Shown piece after piece: positions 16,071 through 49,838 of a DNA stretch of 64,000 bases. Source of the DNA: Escherichia coli (lineage in GTDB: Bacteria > Pseudomonadota > Gammaproteobacteria > Enterobacterales > Enterobacteriaceae); the NCBI RefSeq assembly GCF_017348835.2, contig NZ_CP071375.1. One strand, given 5' to 3'. Every line of letters begins with the position of its first letter. The first letter of the stretch is position 1. The notes beneath the pieces are model-generated. The model saw only the letters and a list, made by a program, of their open reading frames with translations. It ran no database searches and was not told the origin of the DNA. Made by a program: the position numbers and the translations under genes.

Positions 16071-19683
<3,613 letters not shown>

Positions 19684-22508: not shown

Positions 22509-22601
22509 CGGTTACCTTCTCCACTTTCACAGAACATAACGGCACTTTGAACCGCCCCGGAAATCCTGGAGACTAAACTCCCTGAGAAAGAGGTAAACAG
22601 G

Positions 22602-22928
22602 ATGACTAAAAATACTCGTTTTTCCCCCGAAGTCCGTCAGCGGGCGATTCGTATGGTTCTGGAAAGTCAGGATGAATATGACTCACAGTGGGCGGCAATT
22701 TGTTCCATTGCCCCAAAGATTGGCTGTACGCCGGAGACTCTGCGTGTCTGGGTTCGCCAGCATGAGCGGGATACCGGGAGTGGTGATGGTGGACTCACCA
22801 CCGCTGAACGTCAGCGTCTGAAAGAGCTGGAACGTGAAAATCGTGAACTGCGCCGCAGTAACGATATCCTTCGCCAGGCTTCCGCTTATTTTGCGAAGGC
22901 GGAGTTCGACCGCCTCTGGAAAAAATAA
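22602..22928 (+). CDS. IS3-family transposase OrfA (HTH)
   Basis: 108-aa [25 protein letters not shown]... with a C-terminal leucine-zipper-like segment; ends in an A-rich stretch overlapping the orfB ATG. Confidence 0.85.
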
Positions 22929-23815
22929 TGCCACTGCTGGATAAGCTGCGTGAGCAGTACGGGGTCGGACCGGTATGCAGCGAACTGCATATTGCCCCGT
23001 CAACGTATTACCATTGTCAGCAACAGCGACATCATCCGGATAAACGCAGTGCCCGTGCGCAGCACGATGACTGGCTGAAGAAAGAGATACAGCGCGTATA
23101 CGATGAAAATCACCAGGTATACGGTGTGCGTAAAGTCTGGCGTCAGTTGTTACGGGAAGGTATCAGAGTGGCCAGATGCACTGTGGCACGTCTCATGGCA
23201 GTTATGGGACTTGCCGGTGTTCTCCGGGGTAAAAAGGTCCGCACTACCGTCAGCCGGAAAGCCGTTGCCGCATGCGACCGCGTAAACCGTCAGTTCGTGG
23301 CAGAACGTCCAGACCAGTTGTGGGTGGCTGATTTTACCTGGGTAAGCACATGGCAGGGCTTCGTTTATGTGGCGTTCATCATTGATGTGTTCGCCGGATA
23401 CATCGTGGGATGGCAGGTCTCATCATCCATGGAAACAACATTCGTGCTGGATGCACTGGAGCAGGCGTTGTGGGCCCGTCGGCCGTCCGGCACAATCCAT
23501 CACAGTGATAAAGGTTCTCAGTATGTATCGCTGGCCTACACGCAGCGGCTTAAGGAAGCCGGATTACTGGCATCAACAGGGAGTACTGGCGACTCGTATG
23601 ACAACGCGATGGCTGAGAGCATCAATGGTCTTTACAAAGCGGAGGTAATACACCGTAAGAGCTGGAAAAACCGGACAGAAGTGGAACTGGCCACACTAAC
23701 GTGGGTGGACTGGTATAACAATCGACGATTGCTGGAAAGGCTGGGCCATATTCCTCCGGCAGAAGCAGAAAAAGCTTATTATGCTTCCATCGGAAATAAT
23801 GATCTGGCAGCCTGA
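22928..23815 (+). CDS. IS3-family transposase OrfB (DDE integrase core), probably expressed as an OrfAB fusion by -1 frameshifting
   Basis: 295-aa ORF with an rve-type DDE catalytic region (…HSDKGSQYVS…DNAMAES…). Confidence 0.85.
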   Translation: MPLLDKLREQYGVGPVCSELHIAPSTYYHCQQQRHHPDKRSARAQHDDWLKKEIQRVYDENHQVYGVRKVWRQLLREGIRVARCTVARLMAVMGLAGVLRGKKVRTTVSRKAVAACDRVNRQFVAERPDQLWVADFTWVSTWQGFVYVAFIIDVFAGYIVGWQVSSSMETTFVLDALEQALWARRPSGTIHHSDKGSQYVSLAYTQRLKEAGLLASTGSTGDSYDNAMAESINGLYKAEVIHRKSWKNRTEVELATLTWVDWYNNRRLLERLGHIPPAEAEKAYYASIGNNDLAA

Positions 23816-24045
23816 GTTCACAGATAAAACACTCTCCAGGAAACCCGGGGCGGTTCAAACTCGTACAGTGGCGTACCACTGGGGTCCATTCCTTCAAGTC
23901 TCAGGGAAGCCTCTGCTTTGCGGAAGCCCTCAATGCGTAACCGTGTATAGGGAGTCCTAGACATGTTTTTCCTTTGAGTTGCAGGAGTGAGGTTCGCTCA
24001 GTGAAAGCGTCAGCTCACGCAACCTCGTTAACTGACGCGCGTGAT

Positions 24046-25446
24046 TCAAGATTTATTATTACCCGATAAGCTATCACCGGCAAAATCATCATGTTCGCGG
24101 TTATCCCGACGAGTAGCTGTTTGTTTACTTATCTGAGTCGCCAACTCCTCTCCAATAGTTTGTTGGGCACGAGAAGAACTGCTACTTCGCTTCATTCTCT
24201 GGTACTCAGCAGCTCCGTTAGCCATGCTGCTTCCCATATGGCTTGCCATGCGGCCAGCACGCGAGAATGAAGCAAACCCCTGACTTCCTCCACTGGCGCT
24301 ACCTGAACTGCTCCCTGCAGACGAACCACTGTAACCGCCTGAGGTTTGGCCTCCAGAAGTATCTACAGAACCGGTATCTTCCCCGCCGCCAAATCCTCCA
24401 CCGGAACCGCCTCCGCTGCCTGAACCAGATTCTTCGTCCATGGCAGCTTGCGCAGACTCGAATGCTGCCTTTAATGCTGAAGCTCCGCCGCTGACTTGAG
24501 CTGATGCCCCCATTGCCATTGCTCCAGCACCGCTGATGGCAGTAGCGGCTGCGCCGGTAATCATACCCGCCCCAAATCCACCAATCCCTTGTAAAGAAGC
24601 CCCTCCTACAACACCTGATAACAACAGTGGTAGCTTATTAGTTAATACTAACAGGATAATTGACGCCAGAAGCAAAACTATAAGACTATTAAGATCAGGA
24701 ACATCATCTTTAATAAGAGAAAAATATTGATCTATAAATGATTGTCCAATCCCAATAATTAATGTCATCGTGAATAATTGAATGCCAATCGATAAAACAG
24801 TTCGTAAGTAATTAATTGCTATATCAGAGGTCCATTTCGAACCACCAAACCCAAGCAATATAACTCCTGCATAACATAACACCCATGCAGAAACCAACAT
24901 GATTAGCATATTTATCGCTATAAGGGACATCACTACCAAAACGATTATCGCGACTGTTATCATAATGGTGGATATCATTGGCGACCAAATTGATGCGGCT
25001 GAACTGATCTTGGTTAATATCGCAAACGCCATATCAACTATGCTTGAGGGAGAAATACCAATACTTATTTCTAAAGCGTTTGCTGCAAGTTGTCTCATTG
25101 AATTAATTATGGATTGCGATATGGATGGACCGTTGATTAAAAGATAATAAAAAAAACCAATGACGGCAAAAAAGCGAACTATTTCAGCAAGTACCCCTGT
25201 CAACCCTTCCCCTTGCATCGCCATCATACCAAATGTCCAAACCATACTTATTAATACCAGCCCCCAGAAGAGCCAATTTGCATAGTCAGCAATTACTGCT
25301 GTCCATGTACTGGCTACTTGTTGAAACTTATCTAATAAAGTATCAAGTAGCCCGCTACTATCTAATTGACCAGCATAGGCATTAATAGAAAAGAAAAGTA
25401 TGATACCTAAAAAGGTGAGCTTACTTACTATTTTCATGATTACCAT
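24046..25446 (-). CDS. TrbL/VirB6-like type IV secretion membrane protein with a Gly/Ser-rich C-terminal tail
   Basis: 466-aa ORF with signal peptide, multiple TM segments and a low-complexity GSGSGGGSGGG tail as in P-type TrbL; gene order trbJ-trbK-trbL. Confidence 0.65.
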   Translation of the reverse strand: MVIMKIVSKLTFLGIILFFSINAYAGQLDSSGLLDTLLDKFQQVASTWTAVIADYANWLFWGLVLISMVWTFGMMAMQGEGLTGVLAEIVRFFAVIGFFYYLLINGPSISQSIINSMRQLAANALEISIGISPSSIVDMAFAILTKISSAASIWSPMISTIMITVAIIVLVVMSLIAINMLIMLVSAWVLCYAGVILLGFGGSKWTSDIAINYLRTVLSIGIQLFTMTLIIGIGQSFIDQYFSLIKDDVPDLNSLIVLLLASIILLVLTNKLPLLLSGVVGGASLQGIGGFGAGMITGAAATAISGAGAMAMGASAQVSGGASALKAAFESAQAAMDEESGSGSGGGSGGGFGGGEDTGSVDTSGGQTSGGYSGSSAGSSSGSASGGSQGFASFSRAGRMASHMGSSMANGAAEYQRMKRSSSSSRAQQTIGEELATQISKQTATRRDNREHDDFAGDSLSGNNKS

Positions 25447-25631
25447 TCTCGTTTAGGGCTTGGTTTATTATTACTCCGTAGAGCACATTTATCGTATTTA
25501 TGTTCATCAAATTTATTATCTGGCATCGATAAACAATCTTTATCATTTTTATCGCAAGAACATATGGCCAATAAACTGATCAGAATAAATACAATCAAAA
25601 AATTATCTTTCATTCTGCGTTTCCTCACCAA
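25440..25631 (-). CDS. Small lipoprotein, TrbK-like (candidate entry-exclusion protein)
   Basis: 63-aa ORF with a signal peptide, an imperfect lipobox-like LAICSC segment and a Lys/Asp/Cys-rich mature part; sits between the trbJ-like and trbL-like genes as TrbK does in IncP plasmids. Confidence 0.45.
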   Translation of the reverse strand: MVRKRRMKDNFLIVFILISLLAICSCDKNDKDCLSMPDNKFDEHKYDKCALRSNNKPSPKREW

Positions 25632-26419
25632 ATTCGCTTCGGGCTTGGTGTATTCTCTCCAGCTAACGCTTTTTCATCAGCGGCTATCTGTTGTGATTCT
25701 TTATCTGCCTGAGCCTGTGCCAGTGTTGCTGCAGCGTTTTGTTGGGCTACCAGAAGTGAGCGGATTTGCAGTAACTGATTTGTCTGTGCACTGGCAAGCT
25801 GGTTTGCCGCCTGAATAGCTTCCATTTGCCCTTGTGCGCCGCTTGCCTGAGTTTGTAATTCGGCAAGATTATCAGCATCGCTCTGCAGGGTGTTCTGCTG
25901 CTCGTCAATTACCTTAAATACTGCGTCATTGGCCTTTTTACGCGCCCCTGAGCTATTCTGTTCAGCTTCACGCAGTGCACTAATTTCAGACGCGGTACAT
26001 TCAACATTGCTGTTAAAGCAAGACGATGTCCTGTAGTAGTTAACATCCTGATAGCGTTTCAGGTACGCATCGAGACTCCCGGCCTGATTCTTGTAGTAAT
26101 TAAGGGTATCCTGCACCTGCAACAATTTATTAATTGTTGAATTTGCCTGGTCCCAGATATAGGCCGCAGGAGCTACGGTGTTCTGCAGCATGTTTTCATA
26201 CTGCTGCAGCTGCGTCTGGTACTGCTGGATTTGTTTAGTCACAGCCTGAACGTTGTTAACTGCGCTGATTGTGGTCTGAACCACATTAGTGCCATCAATA
26301 ACGGGAATTCCGGCCTTCACCGGTAATGCCATGACGGACGCCACGAAAGGAACTATTAAAGCTTTTTTAGCGGCTAAAATCCCTCTTTGTGATGAAACCA
26401 CTCGGAACTTTAAATTCAT
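25625..26419 (-). CDS. TrbJ/VirB5-like type IV secretion protein
   Basis: 264-aa ORF with signal peptide and Gln/Ala-rich coiled-coil-type sequence; GAGGTGA Shine-Dalgarno 5 nt upstream of the ATG at 26419. Confidence 0.6.
   Translation of the reverse strand: MNLKFRVVSSQRGILAAKKALIVPFVASVMALPVKAGIPVIDGTNVVQTTISAVNNVQAVTKQIQQYQTQLQQYENMLQNTVAPAAYIWDQANSTINKLLQVQDTLNYYKNQAGSLDAYLKRYQDVNYYRTSSCFNSNVECTASEISALREAEQNSSGARKKANDAVFKVIDEQQNTLQSDADNLAELQTQASGAQGQMEAIQAANQLASAQTNQLLQIRSLLVAQQNAAATLAQAQADKESQQIAADEKALAGENTPSPKRIW
26366..26378. promoter_or_regulatory. 13-bp palindrome TTTAGCGGCTAAA (KorB operator-like), copy 1, inside the 5' end of the trbJ-like gene
   Basis: Exact perfect palindrome; matches the IncP KorB operator consensus TTTAGCSGCTAAA as recalled. 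Confidence 0.5.
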
Positions 26420-26499
26420 TTGCTCACCTCTTTTTCAACAGATTAGTAATATTTAACACTCTGTCTGTTAACAGACGCAGGTATATAGGAAACCACACA

Positions 26500-26865
26500 T
26501 TATTTATCCAAGATTTTATCCATAATGTTCCTTAGTTCTTGCCGAGTTGATTCTATTTTCGCAAGCAAGGTTCTTATCAGTGTGGGTGAAAAATCAACTG
26601 TTCGAGGATCATTTGCGAGCCATAATTTAAGTAATCCGCCAAGTCTTCCAAGATCAGCATTTACTCGGCTAAGTTCATTAACCTGTTTTATATCTACGAT
26701 AGAATCAACCTGATAACCCATTGCAACTCTACGAACAAAACAGGCAACACTTAATCCAGATGCTTCTGCATTTTCTTGGATGAGAATTTTTTCTTCGGGT
26801 AAACAATAAACTTTTATTGGCGTACTATTTTTTCTAGTCTGAGTAACTTTCATATAGCTCTCCAT
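26500..26865 (-). CDS. MobC-like relaxosome accessory protein (ribbon-helix-helix-type)
   Basis: 121-aa ORF; the segment VYCLPEEKILIQENAEASGLSVACFVRRVAMG and the following DLGRLGGLL fit the MobC-family pattern recalled from memory. Confidence 0.45.
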   Translation of the reverse strand: MESYMKVTQTRKNSTPIKVYCLPEEKILIQENAEASGLSVACFVRRVAMGYQVDSIVDIKQVNELSRVNADLGRLGGLLKLWLANDPRTVDFSPTLIRTLLAKIESTRQELRNIMDKILDK

Positions 26866-27252
26866 ACAGGCGGTAGCCTGGCAGCCTCGCAGAGCAGGAC
26901 GCCCTTGAGCCGCGATGCGGCGAATAGGGAGTGGTAAAGTTGGAACACCGTAGCGGTGGGCCCACTTTACATGTCCTGCCCTGCAGTTGCCGTTGTATAT
27001 CTGTGCACGACAATGTGTATTTCAGTGTACAGGATGTGTTTTCTTAGCGTATTAATATAGGATTACTGGAGTAAATTTCTGCAGCAAATGTGTTTTTTGC
27101 AAGGAAACTATATTTCTCCCTTTTGAAAATGACCTTTAGTAGTTATAAATGGACGTCCACCAACTGTATTTATGTTTCGATATATTGTAAGAAGTCTTTC
27201 ATTTTCCGATGCACTTTTTTACTTACCTTGTCAGAGCATGTGCATTGCAGAT

Positions 27253-45697: not shown

Positions 45698-47878
45698 CTA
45701 GTGCTTGCTGTAAACCACACGTAATCCATACCCCTGCACGCCATCCTCTTTTTGGGCACCAAATTTCTGTACCGCTTCCTCGTTAGTGGCAGGGATGACA
45801 ATATCTTCATTACTGGTATTCGATTGCGCACCGGTGTAGCCATTGACGCTGTGTCCGGTAAATTCCCACTGGTAGTCGTATTGCGCCATTTCTTCTTCCG
45901 TCAGTTTTTCCGACTGCTGGAAAACGCCATCTTTGTTGACATCGCGCCACAGGACAAAACGATAGGCGTTATCAACAGGCAAATGCTCTTTCTCATTGCC
46001 GATAAGATTGATGGGGTTAGTCGCGGATACACGGTAGATAAAGGCATTAACATCGTTGCCCCCCGCGCCGAGGAAAGTCACATCGACATAGTTACTATCG
46101 TCATACGGTGCGGCCTTTGCTTTCCAGCGGAAGGTGCCGGGCAAAGTACTGGAGAGGGTGACGGTTCCTTTCTCTTTATCTTGCTTCGCGATAAAGACGC
46201 ACGGGTTATCGGTCGAGCAGGGTTTATTGGTGAGGGTGACTTTTTTATCCTGAGCATCGTAAAGCTGCGGACTCAGGCCATCTTCCGGCAGCGCATTACC
46301 GTTACGGTCAGTGTCATCACCAAAGCTATCGGTAACATCGAGATCCATCACCACGCCATCGACGCCATCCGCCTGAGCGCTGGCTTCATGACTGTGATTG
46401 TTTTCATCCGGCACATCCGCAATGTTGTTGACGATCAGTTCAATTTTGCGATCCTGCTGAACGGTGATTTCCACCACGCCGGAGTTTTGCCGGTTGCCTT
46501 TTTCATCTTCCAGAGCCAGACGCACGCGCCAGGTATTGAGTTTTTCCTGTTCGGCGGGATCAGAGCTGTACTGCCAGGCTGGCAGCACCAGATTCCAGTG
46601 GTTGTTGTTCCCTTCCGTGAGGGTATTTTCTTTGATAACCGGCATCACCAGAGTACGCGCAGCGTTGTTTCTCGCCTGCCAAGAGGCGACGACAATCTTA
46701 TAGTGATGATTGATTAGCGCATTGATTGTCCACTTACATTTTTCCAGCCCTACCGCAGCTTCGGGGGTGTCCTTGATGACACAATCCGGGTGTTCATTGG
46801 TGGCGTCAGCCTTCAGCCACAACGTAACGTCGAGAGGATCTTTTTCTTTATATTCCAGAACAATAAAATTATTGCGCTCAACAAAGTCATGGCGGCTGCC
46901 CATCAGCGAGTGAGCTGCTTTGACGTTATCGCTATTCAGTTGATCTTTTAGCGGAACACCGAACTGATAGTTAATCGTGGCGTTAACGCTAAGATCACTG
47001 TTATCTCCGGTACCTGCTTTATAATCCGTCCCGACCGTCAGTAACGGAACGGGTTGATAGTTCACGCCAAGCGTCACTGCATAGGGATCTTTTTCTAAAT
47101 TATCGGTGCCGAAGAGCGCCACTTCGTCACCATAATATTGCTCGAAAACAATTTTGCTCCCCAACTGAGGATAAGAAGGAAGCCTGGCTTCCGCCCGGAC
47201 ATCCCAGCCACGTGCGGGGCGTTCTAAATAGAAATCAAAATCTTTTGAATCTTTCCACTCTGAAAGCGGATGATAATAGTTACCAGAAAATTTTAAATAA
47301 TCCGTCCAGGCTTCTGTTCCCAAACCTAAACGGCGATGTCCGCGGGTGAAATCATAATCATAAAATATATTCCCCCCCAGAAGCCATTTATCAAAATTAT
47401 GTCTTACACCTAAACCTATATTACCTATCGTGCGTTCTTCTTTTCGTTGCGCAGAAAACTGACTGAAATAGACTGTGCTCTGATTGTCATACCAGGGGAC
47501 AAAATAGTCGATTGAACTGCCGTCCAGATCGCCACCCTGACCGATGGAAAGGTTAGAGCGAACTTTACCATAAGGAGAAAGCGCACCTTCGATATAAGAC
47601 TGTGCAGATGATGTGATTTGCCCTTGCAGATAGCTTCTCGCCTGGGATTCAAGAGCTTCTGGAGTCAGGTTCTCAAAGCCCTGCTGGGCGGACTCGGTAA
47701 CGTAATTGGCACCACGTTCCTTGAAAGATTTGCCTTTGTTACTTTGTTCCTCTTGTTGAGCCGTTTCGCTTGCCAGATCAGGTAATGAAGATTCGCTTTG
47801 CTTAATATTTATCTCCGGTGCCGCATAAGCAGCACCAGAAATAACGATTAGCGTTATATAGCGAATCCATCGCAGCAT
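45698..47878 (-). CDS. SinH-like intimin/invasin-family outer membrane protein (inverse autotransporter-like)
   Basis: 726-aa ORF with signal peptide; beta-rich N-terminal half (a candidate barrel) and a C-terminal passenger; length and position match Salmonella SinH as recalled. Confidence 0.55.
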   Translation of the reverse strand: MLRWIRYITLIVISGAAYAAPEINIKQSESSLPDLASETAQQEEQSNKGKSFKERGANYVTESAQQGFENLTPEALESQARSYLQGQITSSAQSYIEGALSPYGKVRSNLSIGQGGDLDGSSIDYFVPWYDNQSTVYFSQFSAQRKEERTIGNIGLGVRHNFDKWLLGGNIFYDYDFTRGHRRLGLGTEAWTDYLKFSGNYYHPLSEWKDSKDFDFYLERPARGWDVRAEARLPSYPQLGSKIVFEQYYGDEVALFGTDNLEKDPYAVTLGVNYQPVPLLTVGTDYKAGTGDNSDLSVNATINYQFGVPLKDQLNSDNVKAAHSLMGSRHDFVERNNFIVLEYKEKDPLDVTLWLKADATNEHPDCVIKDTPEAAVGLEKCKWTINALINHHYKIVVASWQARNNAARTLVMPVIKENTLTEGNNNHWNLVLPAWQYSSDPAEQEKLNTWRVRLALEDEKGNRQNSGVVEITVQQDRKIELIVNNIADVPDENNHSHEASAQADGVDGVVMDLDVTDSFGDDTDRNGNALPEDGLSPQLYDAQDKKVTLTNKPCSTDNPCVFIAKQDKEKGTVTLSSTLPGTFRWKAKAAPYDDSNYVDVTFLGAGGNDVNAFIYRVSATNPINLIGNEKEHLPVDNAYRFVLWRDVNKDGVFQQSEKLTEEEMAQYDYQWEFTGHSVNGYTGAQSNTSNEDIVIPATNEEAVQKFGAQKEDGVQGYGLRVVYSKH

Positions 47879-48087
47879 GTTTTTCCCTGTGAAAATTTAA
47901 TTCTGAAATAATGTCTAATATTGTATTCCAGATAGCACAGGAACTGCACTCCATAAGTGCTAAATATAATCTTAAAATTATAAGAATGTGACTTTACACA
48001 TTTTTAATTAGTCGTTAATCTAATAGGAAAGAGATTATAATATTTATATTAGGAATATATAATGTGAAATCATATATTCCAGTGATA

Positions 48088-48303
48088 TTAAACAATGACA
48101 AATTCAATACGGGTTTTAGAAATTAAACCGTGACCATGCAGGCAGAAATAATCCACCGCACCACACGCTTTTAATACCTGCAACGGTTGGTGGCAGTCAG
48201 GACAAAGAGCCTGGACTATGAAATCTTTGTTACACGTTGCGCAGTGAGTAGCCTCGCCATTACGTTCGAGAGGGTTTTGGCAGATTGGGCAGCTGAGTTC
48301 CAT
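48088..48303 (-). CDS. yfgJ: Zinc-ribbon protein YfgJ
   Basis: 71-aa ORF with two CxxC pairs (CPICQN...CATCNK; CPDCHQ...CLHGH). Confidence 0.85.
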   Translation of the reverse strand: MELSCPICQNPLERNGEATHCATCNKDFIVQALCPDCHQPLQVLKACGAVDYFCLHGHGLISKTRIEFVIV

Positions 48304-48365
48304 AAATGATCCTCACATTTTTATGGGTTTCCCTCTCCATATGGAAAGGGAAACCAGATAAGTAA

Positions 48366-49838
48366 TTACTTACTTTTCTTGATATGCTTCATCAGGCGCT
48401 TACGCTTGCGCATCTGGGTCGGCGTCAGGGTGTTACGCTTATTCGCATACGGGTTTTCCCCTTCTTTGAACTGAATACGAATCGGCGTCCCCATCACATC
48501 CAGAGACTTGCGGAAATAGTTCATCAGATAACGCTTGTAGGAATCCGGCAGGTCTTTTACCTGGTTACCGTGAATCACCACAATCGGCGGGTTATAGCCA
48601 CCTGCGTGAGCATACTTCAGCTTCACACGACGACCACGTACCAGCGGCGGCTGGTGATCTTCAACTGCCATGGTCATAATACGTGTCAGCATAGACGTTC
48701 CCACACGACGGGTGGAGCTGTCATACGCTTCACGTACTGATTCAAACAAGTTACCAACACCACTGCCGTGCAAGGCAGAGATAAAGTGCACACGAGCAAA
48801 ATCGATAAAGCCCAGACGGAAGTCCAGCGTTTCTTTCACCTGCTCTTTCACTTCCTGACTCAGGCCATCCCACTTATTCACCACAATGACAAGTGAGCGC
48901 CCACTATTGAGAATAAAGCCCAGCAGCGAGAGATCCTGATCGGAAATACCTTCGCGCGCATCAATCACTAACATCACCACGTTGGCATCTTCAATGGCCT
49001 GCAACGTTTTGATTACGGAGAATTTCTCTACAGCATCGGTGATTTTGCCGCGTTTACGTACGCCAGCGGTGTCAATGAGCACATACTCACGTCCATCGCG
49101 TTCCATTGGGATGTAGATGCTGTCACGCGTCGTGCCAGGCATGTCGTAAACAACAACGCGCTCTTCACCAAGAATACGGTTAGTGAGTGTAGACTTACCT
49201 ACGTTCGGACGACCCACAATCGCCAGTTTGATCGGCAGACTTTGCGGGTCGAAGTCGTCTTCCTCTTCTTCTTCGCCGTTCTCTTCCGCTTCAAATTGCG
49301 CCCAGTATTCAGCGTCTTCGTCGACTTCCTCTTGCGGTGCGAGATCTTCCATCCACGGCAGCAGCACATGCTCCAGCAGACTTAATACGCCACGACCGTG
49401 AGACGCGGCGATCGGGTAGATTTCACCTAAACCAAGCGAGTAGAAATCAACCACTGCCTGATCGGGATCCAGACCGTCAGTTTTGTTTGCCACCAGGAAG
49501 GTCGGTTTTTCACGGGAGCGCAGATGTTTGGCAATCGCTTCATCTGCCGGCATCAGGCCCGCGCGCGCATCCACCATAAACAGTACGACGTCCGCTTCTT
49601 CAATCGCCAGCAGCGACTGTTCCGCCATGCGGGTTTCTACACCGTCTTCTGTGCCATCAATCCCGCCGGTATCAATACAGATAAACTCACGGCCTTCAAT
49701 TTCCGCACGACCGTACTTACGGTCACGAGTCAGACCCGGGAAATCCGCAACCAGCGCATCTCGGGTGCGAGTTAGACGGTTAAATAACGTGGATTTTCCT
49801 ACGTTAGGGCGCCCGACAAGCGCGACCACAGGTACCAT
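48366..49838 (-). CDS. der: Ribosome-associated GTPase Der (EngA), tandem GTPase domains plus KH-like domain
   Basis: Start at [23 protein letters not shown] (490 aa) with GAGG Shine-Dalgarno 9 nt upstream; two G1 motifs GRPNVGKS. Confidence 0.95.

Follow-up and report, generated by a model that had tools for sequence, protein, structure and literature searches.

A 64 kb stretch of Escherichia coli DNA (contig NZ_CP071375.1; hereafter the window) carries between positions 24046 and 26865 four intact open reading frames (ORFs), all on the minus strand: traJ, trbJ, a trbK-like gene and trbL. We read these genes as the mobilisation and transfer module of an integrative mobilizable element of the PIME1 type, a relative of GIsul2, which lies at the 3' end of guaA and would depend for its transfer on an IncP-1 plasmid as helper; we place the probability of this reading at roughly 0.8. 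An earlier sequence-only reading had singled out the same four genes, and this finding is real, rightly placed and broadly correct in its interpretation, the element being of a known kind in a truncated state. The design in which trbJ, trbK and trbL stand without the remainder of a type IV secretion system (T4SS) had been discussed for GIsul2 as early as 2017, and a study of 2026 named the family and put it to experimental test. What is new here is the identity of the probable helper, the presence of KorB operators and the covariation of TrbK with TrbL, all of which are put forward as hypotheses for PIME biology.

The transfer genes and their origin of transfer

Profile searches place trbJ and trbL well above the cut-offs of their families (Table 1). 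The traJ product scored 160.2 bits against the NCBIfam model NF010451 for IncP TraJ (cut-off 134), its NCBIfam matches being TraJ, MobA and MbpA, and in the Pfam scan (E <= 0.001) its sole match was the NikA-like family PF21983 (E 1e-22), with the MobC profile unmatched. The name "mobC-like", under which the gene had first been described, should therefore be replaced by IncP-type traJ. For the trbK candidate, the best NCBIfam match was TrbK_RP4 (TIGR04359), which covered the full length at 13.3 bits (E 0.061) against a cut-off of 23; as controls, the TrbK proteins of the IncP-1 plasmids pHKSHmcr1_P2_p1 and R751 scored 24.1 bits (barely passing) and 102 bits, respectively. The island protein and the TrbK of R751 have the C-terminal motif KPSPKREW in common, and the placement of a small lipoprotein ORF between trbJ and trbL is that of an entry-exclusion-type gene.

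The whole window was searched by tblastn with 28 IncP-1 queries, which comprised TrbB to TrbN, TraC to TraM (including the relaxase TraI and the coupling protein TraG), KorA, KorB, IncC and TrfA. Only TrbL, TrbJ and TraJ were matched, and no homologue of the other IncP-1 backbone proteins was found in the window. The proposal that the trio and its accessory gene occur without a relaxase or the remaining T4SS is thus borne out, as is the view that this is a non-autonomous island module and no self-transmissible system, since relaxase, coupling protein and a complete mating-pair-formation set are all unmatched in the window. Beyond the insertion sequence (IS) that borders the module, where a full T4SS and relaxase might have been encoded, the DNA is the usual chromosomal sequence, with yfgG, pdeF and ppx.

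An alignment with IncP-1 origins of transfer (oriT) covers the 100 bp upstream of traJ. An imperfect 17-nt inverted repeat (26934-26950 and 26954-26970) agrees with the 17-bp oriT repeat of the E. coli PIME1 (10.64898/2026.01.12.698999). Eight bases past the inverted repeat lies the nic motif, which reads ACTTTACATGTCCTG|CCC on the plus strand; the nic region of the island is identical to that of pHKSHmcr1_P2_p1, R751 having ATCCTG in its place, while the inner part of the inverted repeat is island-specific in the oriT alignment. The nick is predicted on the plus strand between 26978 and 26979, a position inside ATCCTG|C that we assume from established work on RP4. In RP4, TraJ binds the inner part of the oriT inverted repeat. 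The sequence CATCCTGT near 27030 was also considered as nic. It was rejected because its strand is the wrong one and because it falls outside the part that aligned with the oriTs of IncP plasmids; the nic homologous to theirs occupies 26971-26979. The traJ gene had rightly been taken for one encoding a relaxosome accessory protein, but its cognate oriT directly upstream had been overlooked. In addition, the 80-bp gap between traJ and trbJ (26420-26499) contains a perfect 10-bp palindrome, CTGTTAACAG, which is a possible operator or weak terminator.

The island and its known relatives

The part of the window from 22 to 33.3 kb is 100% identical to the chromosome of E. coli PE164 (NZ_CP114128.1), a pig isolate from Nanjing. 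It includes a stretch of low G+C content (~0.38-0.47) between flanks of ~0.50-0.55, which are ordinary E. coli backbone with ppk, ppx, pdeF and yfgG on one side and guaA and guaB on the other. Starting from guaA, the order on the minus strand is the core of the attachment site (att), the integrase gene int, a gene for a 209-aa membrane protein, luxR (on the opposite strand) with alpA, repA, a gene for a 253-aa protein, iterons, oriT, traJ, trbJ, trbK and trbL. The gene set by which the preprint defines PIME1 is present, with its genes on the minus strand within 24046-32952, and luxR is divergent from alpA (Table 1). PIME1 of E. coli RHB23-C07, which we compared by its description (10.64898/2026.01.12.698999), occupies the same guaA-adjacent site, is likewise relaxase-less and has int, luxR/alpA, repA, an iteron oriV, an IncP-like oriT, traJ and trbJ-trbK-trbL. 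The window copy differs from it in being without the cargo/defence region, most of higA and the distal att, and in a repA that is 14 codons shorter.

GIsul2, which also integrates at guaA, shares with the island trbJ-trbK-trbL, a KorB operator inside trbJ and the att core GAGTGGGA, which is contained on the other strand of the island core AAATCATTCCCACTCA. The identities are 87% for the integrase, 79% for AlpA, 62% for RepA, 54% for TrbJ and 45% for TrbL. In contrast to the island, GIsul2 possesses an IncQ-type repC and a resistance cargo (sul2, ISCR2, ars), has no luxR and no traJ, and has one KorB operator against the four of the island. With the CR2-sul2 unit and the ars genes absent from the island, and with the protein at the repC position unlike GIsul2 RepC, the island is a relative and not a member of GIsul2. 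According to a 2017 review, TrbJ, TrbK and TrbL are the sole T4SS components of GIsul2 and of the "IncP island" (PMC5704250); the trio is also reported for PIMEs (10.64898/2026.01.12.698999), in agreement with the statement of the sequence-only reading that it is known from mobilizable islands. The review proposed that the trio alters the mating channel of IncP plasmids in the way that SGI1 alters that of IncC plasmids (PMC5704250).

SGI1 is an integrative mobilizable element without a full T4SS whose three mating-pore subunit genes replace helper subunits and so defeat the exclusion of the helper, its TraG_S disabling IncC exclusion (PMC5389848). SGI1 further has sites that mimic the parS (ParB-binding) sites of IncC, and by means of these it stabilises itself and expels the helper (PMC10954446). 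SGI1 differs from the island in that its sequence is unrelated, its subunits belong to an F-type and not a P-type T4SS, it integrates at trmE and it is activated by AcaCD. Any function carried over from SGI1 to PIMEs would be a likeness in principle. The IncP-1 plasmids of the pHKSHmcr1_P2_p1/pMCR_1511 type have a homologous traJ-oriT region, trbJ-trbK-trbL, an identical nic region and a KorB operator in trbJ; unlike the island, which has none of these, they possess complete Tra1 and Tra2 regions, a relaxase, korA-incC-korB and trfA.

Distribution and selection of the transfer module

Of 5426 complete E. coli genomes, 197 contain the traJ-trbJKL module at a coverage of at least 80%. All ORFs are intact in six E. 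coli island copies that were compared, among which the ratio of nonsynonymous to synonymous substitution rates (dN/dS) is 0.09 for trbJ, 0.25 for trbL, 0.18 for traJ and 0.12 for int; among these copies, trbK varies too little for such a ratio. The transfer genes are under purifying selection. A scan by TrbJ alignment with one genome per species returned 80 loci, the experimentally studied Morganella PIME1 not being among these. Twenty of the loci also have TrbB, TrbE, TrbG or TrbI, 11 are too short to classify, and 49 are trio-only, which we define as having trbJ and trbL, none of these four proteins and at least 2.5 kb visible upstream of trbJ. In almost every one of these 49 loci, a small lipoprotein ORF of highly diverse sequence lies between trbJ and trbL. 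The recurrence in 49 species, the intact ORFs and the low dN/dS point to a selected design and not to debris, and to speak of a mere "retention" of the gene set, as was done initially, does not do justice to the same trio-only design at 49 loci in 49 species.

The identity of TrbK between loci follows that of TrbL more than that of TrbJ. Across 66 loci (L012-L091), the partial rank correlation of TrbK identity with identity over the first 260 matched TrbL residues is 0.46 given TrbJ, whereas that with TrbJ identity is -0.02 given TrbL. When only pairs with TrbJ identity of at least 80% are taken, the mean TrbL identity is 62% for the 58 pairs with TrbK below 50% and 97% for the 89 pairs with TrbK of at least 80%. 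Since trbK sits between trbJ and trbL, linkage alone does not favour trbL; the locus pairs are phylogenetically non-independent, so this covariation is only suggestive. It suggests the membrane domain of TrbL as a candidate donor-side partner of IncP TrbK, a partner that has not been identified so far (PMC8923210).

The probable helper

Compared with two IncP-1 plasmids, the island proteins are consistently nearer to those of pHKSHmcr1_P2_p1 than to those of R751, with identities of 86% against 57% for TrbJ, 65% against 47% for TraJ and 61% against 48% for TrbL. The island TrbK is 26% identical to that of pHKSHmcr1_P2_p1. TrbL is uneven, residues 318-395 being ~90% identical to the plasmid protein and the membrane part 30-70% per 40-residue block. 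TrbJ proteins that are 80-90% identical were found on 110 plasmids. The value of 86% applies to IncP-1 plasmids of 40-57 kb from Enterobacteriaceae, for example pHKSHmcr1_P2_p1 (NZ_MF136778.1), with full Tra1 and Tra2 regions, TraI, TraG, korA-incC-korB and trfA, and NZ_KX377410.1.

At the DNA level, the trbJ allele of the window is 85% and that of island locus L010 93% identical to the plasmid trbJ, while trbL and traJ-oriT of the island are 68% and 66% identical to those of pHKSHmcr1_P2_p1. The two island trbJ alleles are ~9% apart in DNA (window 25625-26419, L010:10767-11561 and L004:4087-4857 were compared) between flanking traJ and trbK genes that are nearly identical; dS between the alleles is 0.43, with traJ almost unchanged and zero synonymous change in trbK. 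The divergence of the trbJ alleles beside nearly invariant neighbours points to a recent exchange of trbJ, plausibly with plasmids of the pHKSHmcr1_P2_p1 clade. As judged from these similarities, the most probable cognate helpers are the enterobacterial IncP-1 plasmids of the pHKSHmcr1_P2_p1/pMCR_1511 clade, and not those of IncP-1 beta or epsilon.

Excision and replication of the E. coli PIME1 are induced by an IncP helper, and pB10 (IncP-1 beta) and pKJK5 (IncP-1 epsilon) induce its excision without mobilising it (10.64898/2026.01.12.698999). We infer that a helper specificity for the pHKSHmcr1_P2_p1 clade may explain why these two plasmids induce the element and do not move it. The predicted helper clade also spreads mcr-1 in E. 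coli of pigs and humans; if the islands move with mcr-type IncP plasmids, their cargo of defence systems would spread by the same routes.

Operators for a KorB that the island does not encode

The KorB operator (O_B) of RK2 is the 13-bp palindrome TTTAGCSGCTAAA (PMC11790492; bioRxiv 10.64898/2026.05.27.728120). The island has three perfect copies and one with a single mismatch (Table 1), where chance would give ~0.07 in 64 kb; the remaining 54.6 kb of the window is free of such matches. All four are kept in five other island copies. No homologue of KorA, KorB, IncC or TrbA was found in the window, and the 49 trio-only loci gave no match to KorA, KorB or TrbA and two weak matches to IncC (21-26% identity; L054 and L074). 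The operator also occurs within the trbJ signal-peptide codons of both pHKSHmcr1_P2_p1 and R751, which implies that O_B1, placed alike, came with the gene; O_B2, O_B3 and O_B4 are in island-specific DNA. For comparison, perfect operators number 13 in pHKSHmcr1_P2_p1 and 10 in R751, of which two stretches were examined.

The same holds beyond E. coli. Each of the 49 trio-only loci has at least one perfect O_B, and 37 of the 49 have at least two. In total, 120 were counted in 871 kb of these loci, with ~0.03 expected at equal base frequencies, and their density (1.4 per 10 kb) compares with 1.6 per 10 kb in plasmid-like loci. Outside trbJ, the operators recur in certain places, namely upstream of traK or traJ-oriT, just past trbL and, where luxR or alpA faces int, 20-60 bp past the 3' end of luxR/alpA. 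In islands of Buttiauxella, Erwinia, Phytobacter and Verticiella, an O_B is found 55-63 bp past the end of the int match.

KorB is a CTP-dependent sliding clamp, a co-repressor and the ParB protein of the IncC-KorB partition system (PMC11790492; 10.64898/2026.05.27.728120). The presence of four operators without an island korB suggests that the KorB of a helper binds to these sites on the island and acts there in regulation, in partition or in both. We give even odds to the broader proposal that PIME-type islands are wired through O_B into the KorB (ParB-family) system of IncP-1 helpers while having no korB of their own. The operators could serve in helper sensing, co-regulation, hijacking of partition or titration of KorB. 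Loading of helper KorB on the island operators may constitute, in whole or in part, the IncP-specific signal that the island senses, and KorB at these sites is thus a candidate for the helper-derived inducing signal; once the island replicates, its operators may titrate KorB or hijack IncC-KorB partition. IncN, IncX and IncL/M plasmids do not induce excision, unlike those of IncP-1 beta and epsilon, and the replicating PIME depresses pB10 and reduces colony size (10.64898/2026.01.12.698999). If true, wiring by KorB would explain the IncP-specific induction even of an island that is not mobilised, and hijacking of partition or titration of KorB would fit the depression of pB10 and the small colonies. 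No report linking KorB to guaA islands, GIsul2 or integrative mobilizable elements was found in the searchable literature, an earlier mention in older papers being possible.

Other regulatory signals were sought in the window. The KorA operator GTTTAGCTAAAC (at most one mismatch) and the KorC operator (at most three mismatches) gave no match there. A promoter scan returned 29 sites against 20.3 +/- 4.0 in shuffled sequence, which is not informative, and no promoter could be assigned to the O_B sites. The central A of O_B3 creates an extended -10 element (TGcTAAAAT) on the strand antisense to luxR; it is a speculative thought that a KorB-repressed antisense promoter at this site would turn a repressor into an inducer.

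O_B3 and O_B4 are situated in a related context of 57 nt (30843-30899 and 31679-31735; 16253-16309 and 17089-17145 in the intact island L003). The gene for the 209-aa membrane protein between them resembles a cassette that has entered a duplicated O_B region; profile searches returned no family for the protein, and among loci from other species the gene has a match in L017 alone.

Proposed mechanism and alternative explanations

Under the PIME1 reading, the island TraJ would, after excision, bind the island-specific inverted repeat and recruit the TraI relaxase of a co-resident IncP-1 plasmid, which would nick the island oriT at GTCCTG|C, and the island DNA would leave through the channel of the helper. 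The island TrbJ (VirB5) and TrbL (VirB6) may substitute for the corresponding helper subunits. Together with the divergent TrbK of the island, the hybrid channel would then have an exclusion specificity unlike that of the helper, as with SGI1 TraN, TraH and TraG and IncC plasmids, and this altered exclusion would open helper-bearing cells to the island. That TrbJ is near the plasmid version while TrbK and the membrane domain of TrbL have diverged is consistent with such an SGI1-like model.

Several points weigh against this picture. The score of the island TrbK is below the threshold of its family model, repA is shortened in this copy, and PE164 is without an IncP plasmid, its sole plasmid being a decayed IncF replicon with no IncP genes. 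Furthermore, the role of trbJ, trbK and trbL in PIMEs and GIsul2 is itself a proposal drawn by analogy, and the assignment of the helper follows from sequence similarity. Neither of the two IncP-1 plasmids that were tried mobilised the E. coli PIME1 (10.64898/2026.01.12.698999). Finally, KorB is known as a repressor, which leaves an induction of excision by KorB unexplained.

It might be argued that TrbJ and TrbL are simply extra copies which raise or rescue the conjugation of the helper, to mutual benefit and with exclusion specificity unchanged. TrbJ has indeed been kept 86-93% like the plasmid gene, and a helper can use a PIME relaxase (10.64898/2026.01.12.698999), so cross-complementation does occur; the strong divergence of TrbK and of the TrbL membrane domain would be unexpected for a simple effect of dosage, and we consider this explanation unlikely. 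Similarly improbable, in our judgement, is that the trio is mainly an entry-exclusion device in which TrbK blocks incoming IncP plasmids or further island copies and so protects the host. The TrbK of RP4 is sufficient for exclusion and has its effect in the recipient cell (PMC5704250; PMC8923210), and a lipoprotein gene is conserved at the trbK position. Exclusion is usually specific, however, and at 26% identity to the TrbK of the most similar plasmids, those of the likely helper, the island protein is not favoured as a barrier to the helper plasmid, a role that had been suggested for it at the outset; nor would exclusion alone need TrbJ and TrbL, which are nevertheless conserved and under selection. 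Matches on two records were seen in 1 of 290 matching E. coli genomes, too few to test exclusion. That the four genes are a decaying, functionless remnant of an integrated IncP plasmid or integrative and conjugative element, left by deletion, is very improbable, for although the copy is IS-truncated, its repA has a premature stop and the strain has no helper, the same gene set and boundaries without TrbB, TrbE, TrbG or TrbI recur in 49 species and the module in 197 E. coli genomes, the ORFs are intact with dN/dS of 0.09-0.25, att repeats bound the element in intact copies, and the truncation lies outside the four genes.

State of the window copy

In E. coli relatives without the IS, trbL is followed by a higA-family gene (435 bp when intact, as in L002 and L003), then by variable cargo and then by yfgI. 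In the window, the IS joins a point just after yfgG to codon ~35 of higA, and yfgH, yfgI, the distal att, the cargo and most of higA are gone. The IS has the terminal inverted repeats TGAACCGCCCCGG.../...CCGGGGCGGTTCA; from its length and these repeats, we take it to be IS629/IS1203-like. Its 3-bp flanks (ctt and aac) differ, and there is thus no target duplication. A pig isolate, E. coli F2_81 (NZ_CP043542.1), has the same junction between IS and higA, the match beginning only at the left end of the IS; by this comparison, the IS was probably inserted first, and the rearrangements to its left were later and separate.

The intact island L003 has the 16-bp direct repeat AAATCATTCCCACTCA at both ends, with one copy overlapping the guaA stop codon. 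In the window, the guaA-side copy is present at 33254-33269 and the distal copy is absent. With a single att core left, excision by the integrase should be impossible, and this copy is probably no longer able to excise and is locked in the chromosome. Truncation by the IS and loss of the distal att make its mobilisation as an island unlikely. With a helper, the island oriT could still drive a Hfr-like transfer in which the repA-int-guaA side would go first.

The region between higA and the distal att, which is lost here, is a cargo hotspot in L002, L003, L009, L010 and L011, with different defence-type genes in each strain. The cargo found there includes DUF2290 with a helicase (PADLOC PDLC02999/PDLC03002), ABC-three-component systems, a large reverse-transcriptase protein, and DprA with RecQ.

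Replication genes and remaining features

The premature stop in repA, by which 14 codons are lost, is seen only in this strain, the five other island copies reading on. The 253-aa protein, whose gene follows repA on the minus strand, is a candidate initiator, a guess made from its repC-like position; it had no Pfam, NCBIfam or PADLOC match and no similarity to GIsul2 RepC by blastp. The iterons near its gene are a candidate oriV, and in a related PIME1 an iteron oriV lies downstream of the replicase (10.64898/2026.01.12.698999). The positions of these and the other features are collected in Table 1.

Table 1. Features of the island and its IS boundary, in window coordinates.
Feature	Position	Strand	Basis or remark
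IS3-family element, 1310 bp	22548..23857	+	RefSeq IS3-family transposase; terminal repeats
higA-family antitoxin gene, 5' remnant of ~35 codons	23859..23964	-	homology to IS-free islands begins at 23859
trbL (VirB6-like)	24046..25446	-	TIGR02783 TrbL_P, 270 bits (cut-off 129); intact; mosaic relative to the plasmid gene
trbK-like lipoprotein gene, 57 aa	25440..25613	-	lipobox; two Cys in the mature part
trbJ (VirB5-like)	25625..26419	-	NF010452, 379 bits (cut-off 286)
O_B1, TTTAGCGGCTAAA	26366..26378		inside trbJ signal-peptide codons
traJ, IncP-type oriT-binding relaxosome accessory protein (ribbon-helix-helix)	26500..26853 (longest ORF to 26865)	-	NF010451
IncP-type oriT	26889..26984	+	alignment with oriT of pHKSHmcr1_P2_p1 and R751; repeat search
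O_B2, TTTAGCGGCTAAA at 27253-27265 in a 25-bp perfect palindrome	27247..27271		between oriV and oriT
candidate oriV, iterons 21 bp apart, three copies and a partial fourth	27484..27558		repeat search
253-aa protein gene, candidate initiator	27541..28302	-	position as repC in GIsul2
repA helicase gene (IncQ-type)	28331..29146	-	RefSeq annotation; 62% identical to GIsul2 RepA
alpA-family regulator gene	29152..29382	-	RefSeq; 79% identical to GIsul2 AlpA
luxR-family regulator gene, divergent from alpA	29460..30431	+	RefSeq; PIME1 hallmark according to the preprint (10.64898/2026.01.12.698999)
O_B3, TTTAGCAGCTAAA, one mismatch at the centre	30857..30869		3' of luxR
209-aa predicted membrane protein gene	31009..31638	-	between O_B3 and O_B4
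O_B4, TTTAGCGGCTAAA	31693..31705		56 bp past the int stop codon
int, tyrosine integrase gene	31762..32952	-	87% identical to GIsul2 integrase
att core AAATCATTCCCACTCA, 16 bp	33254..33269		overlaps the guaA stop codon; sole copy in the window

Apart from the island, a second dip in G+C content (0.43-0.46) occurs at 47000-49000 of the window.

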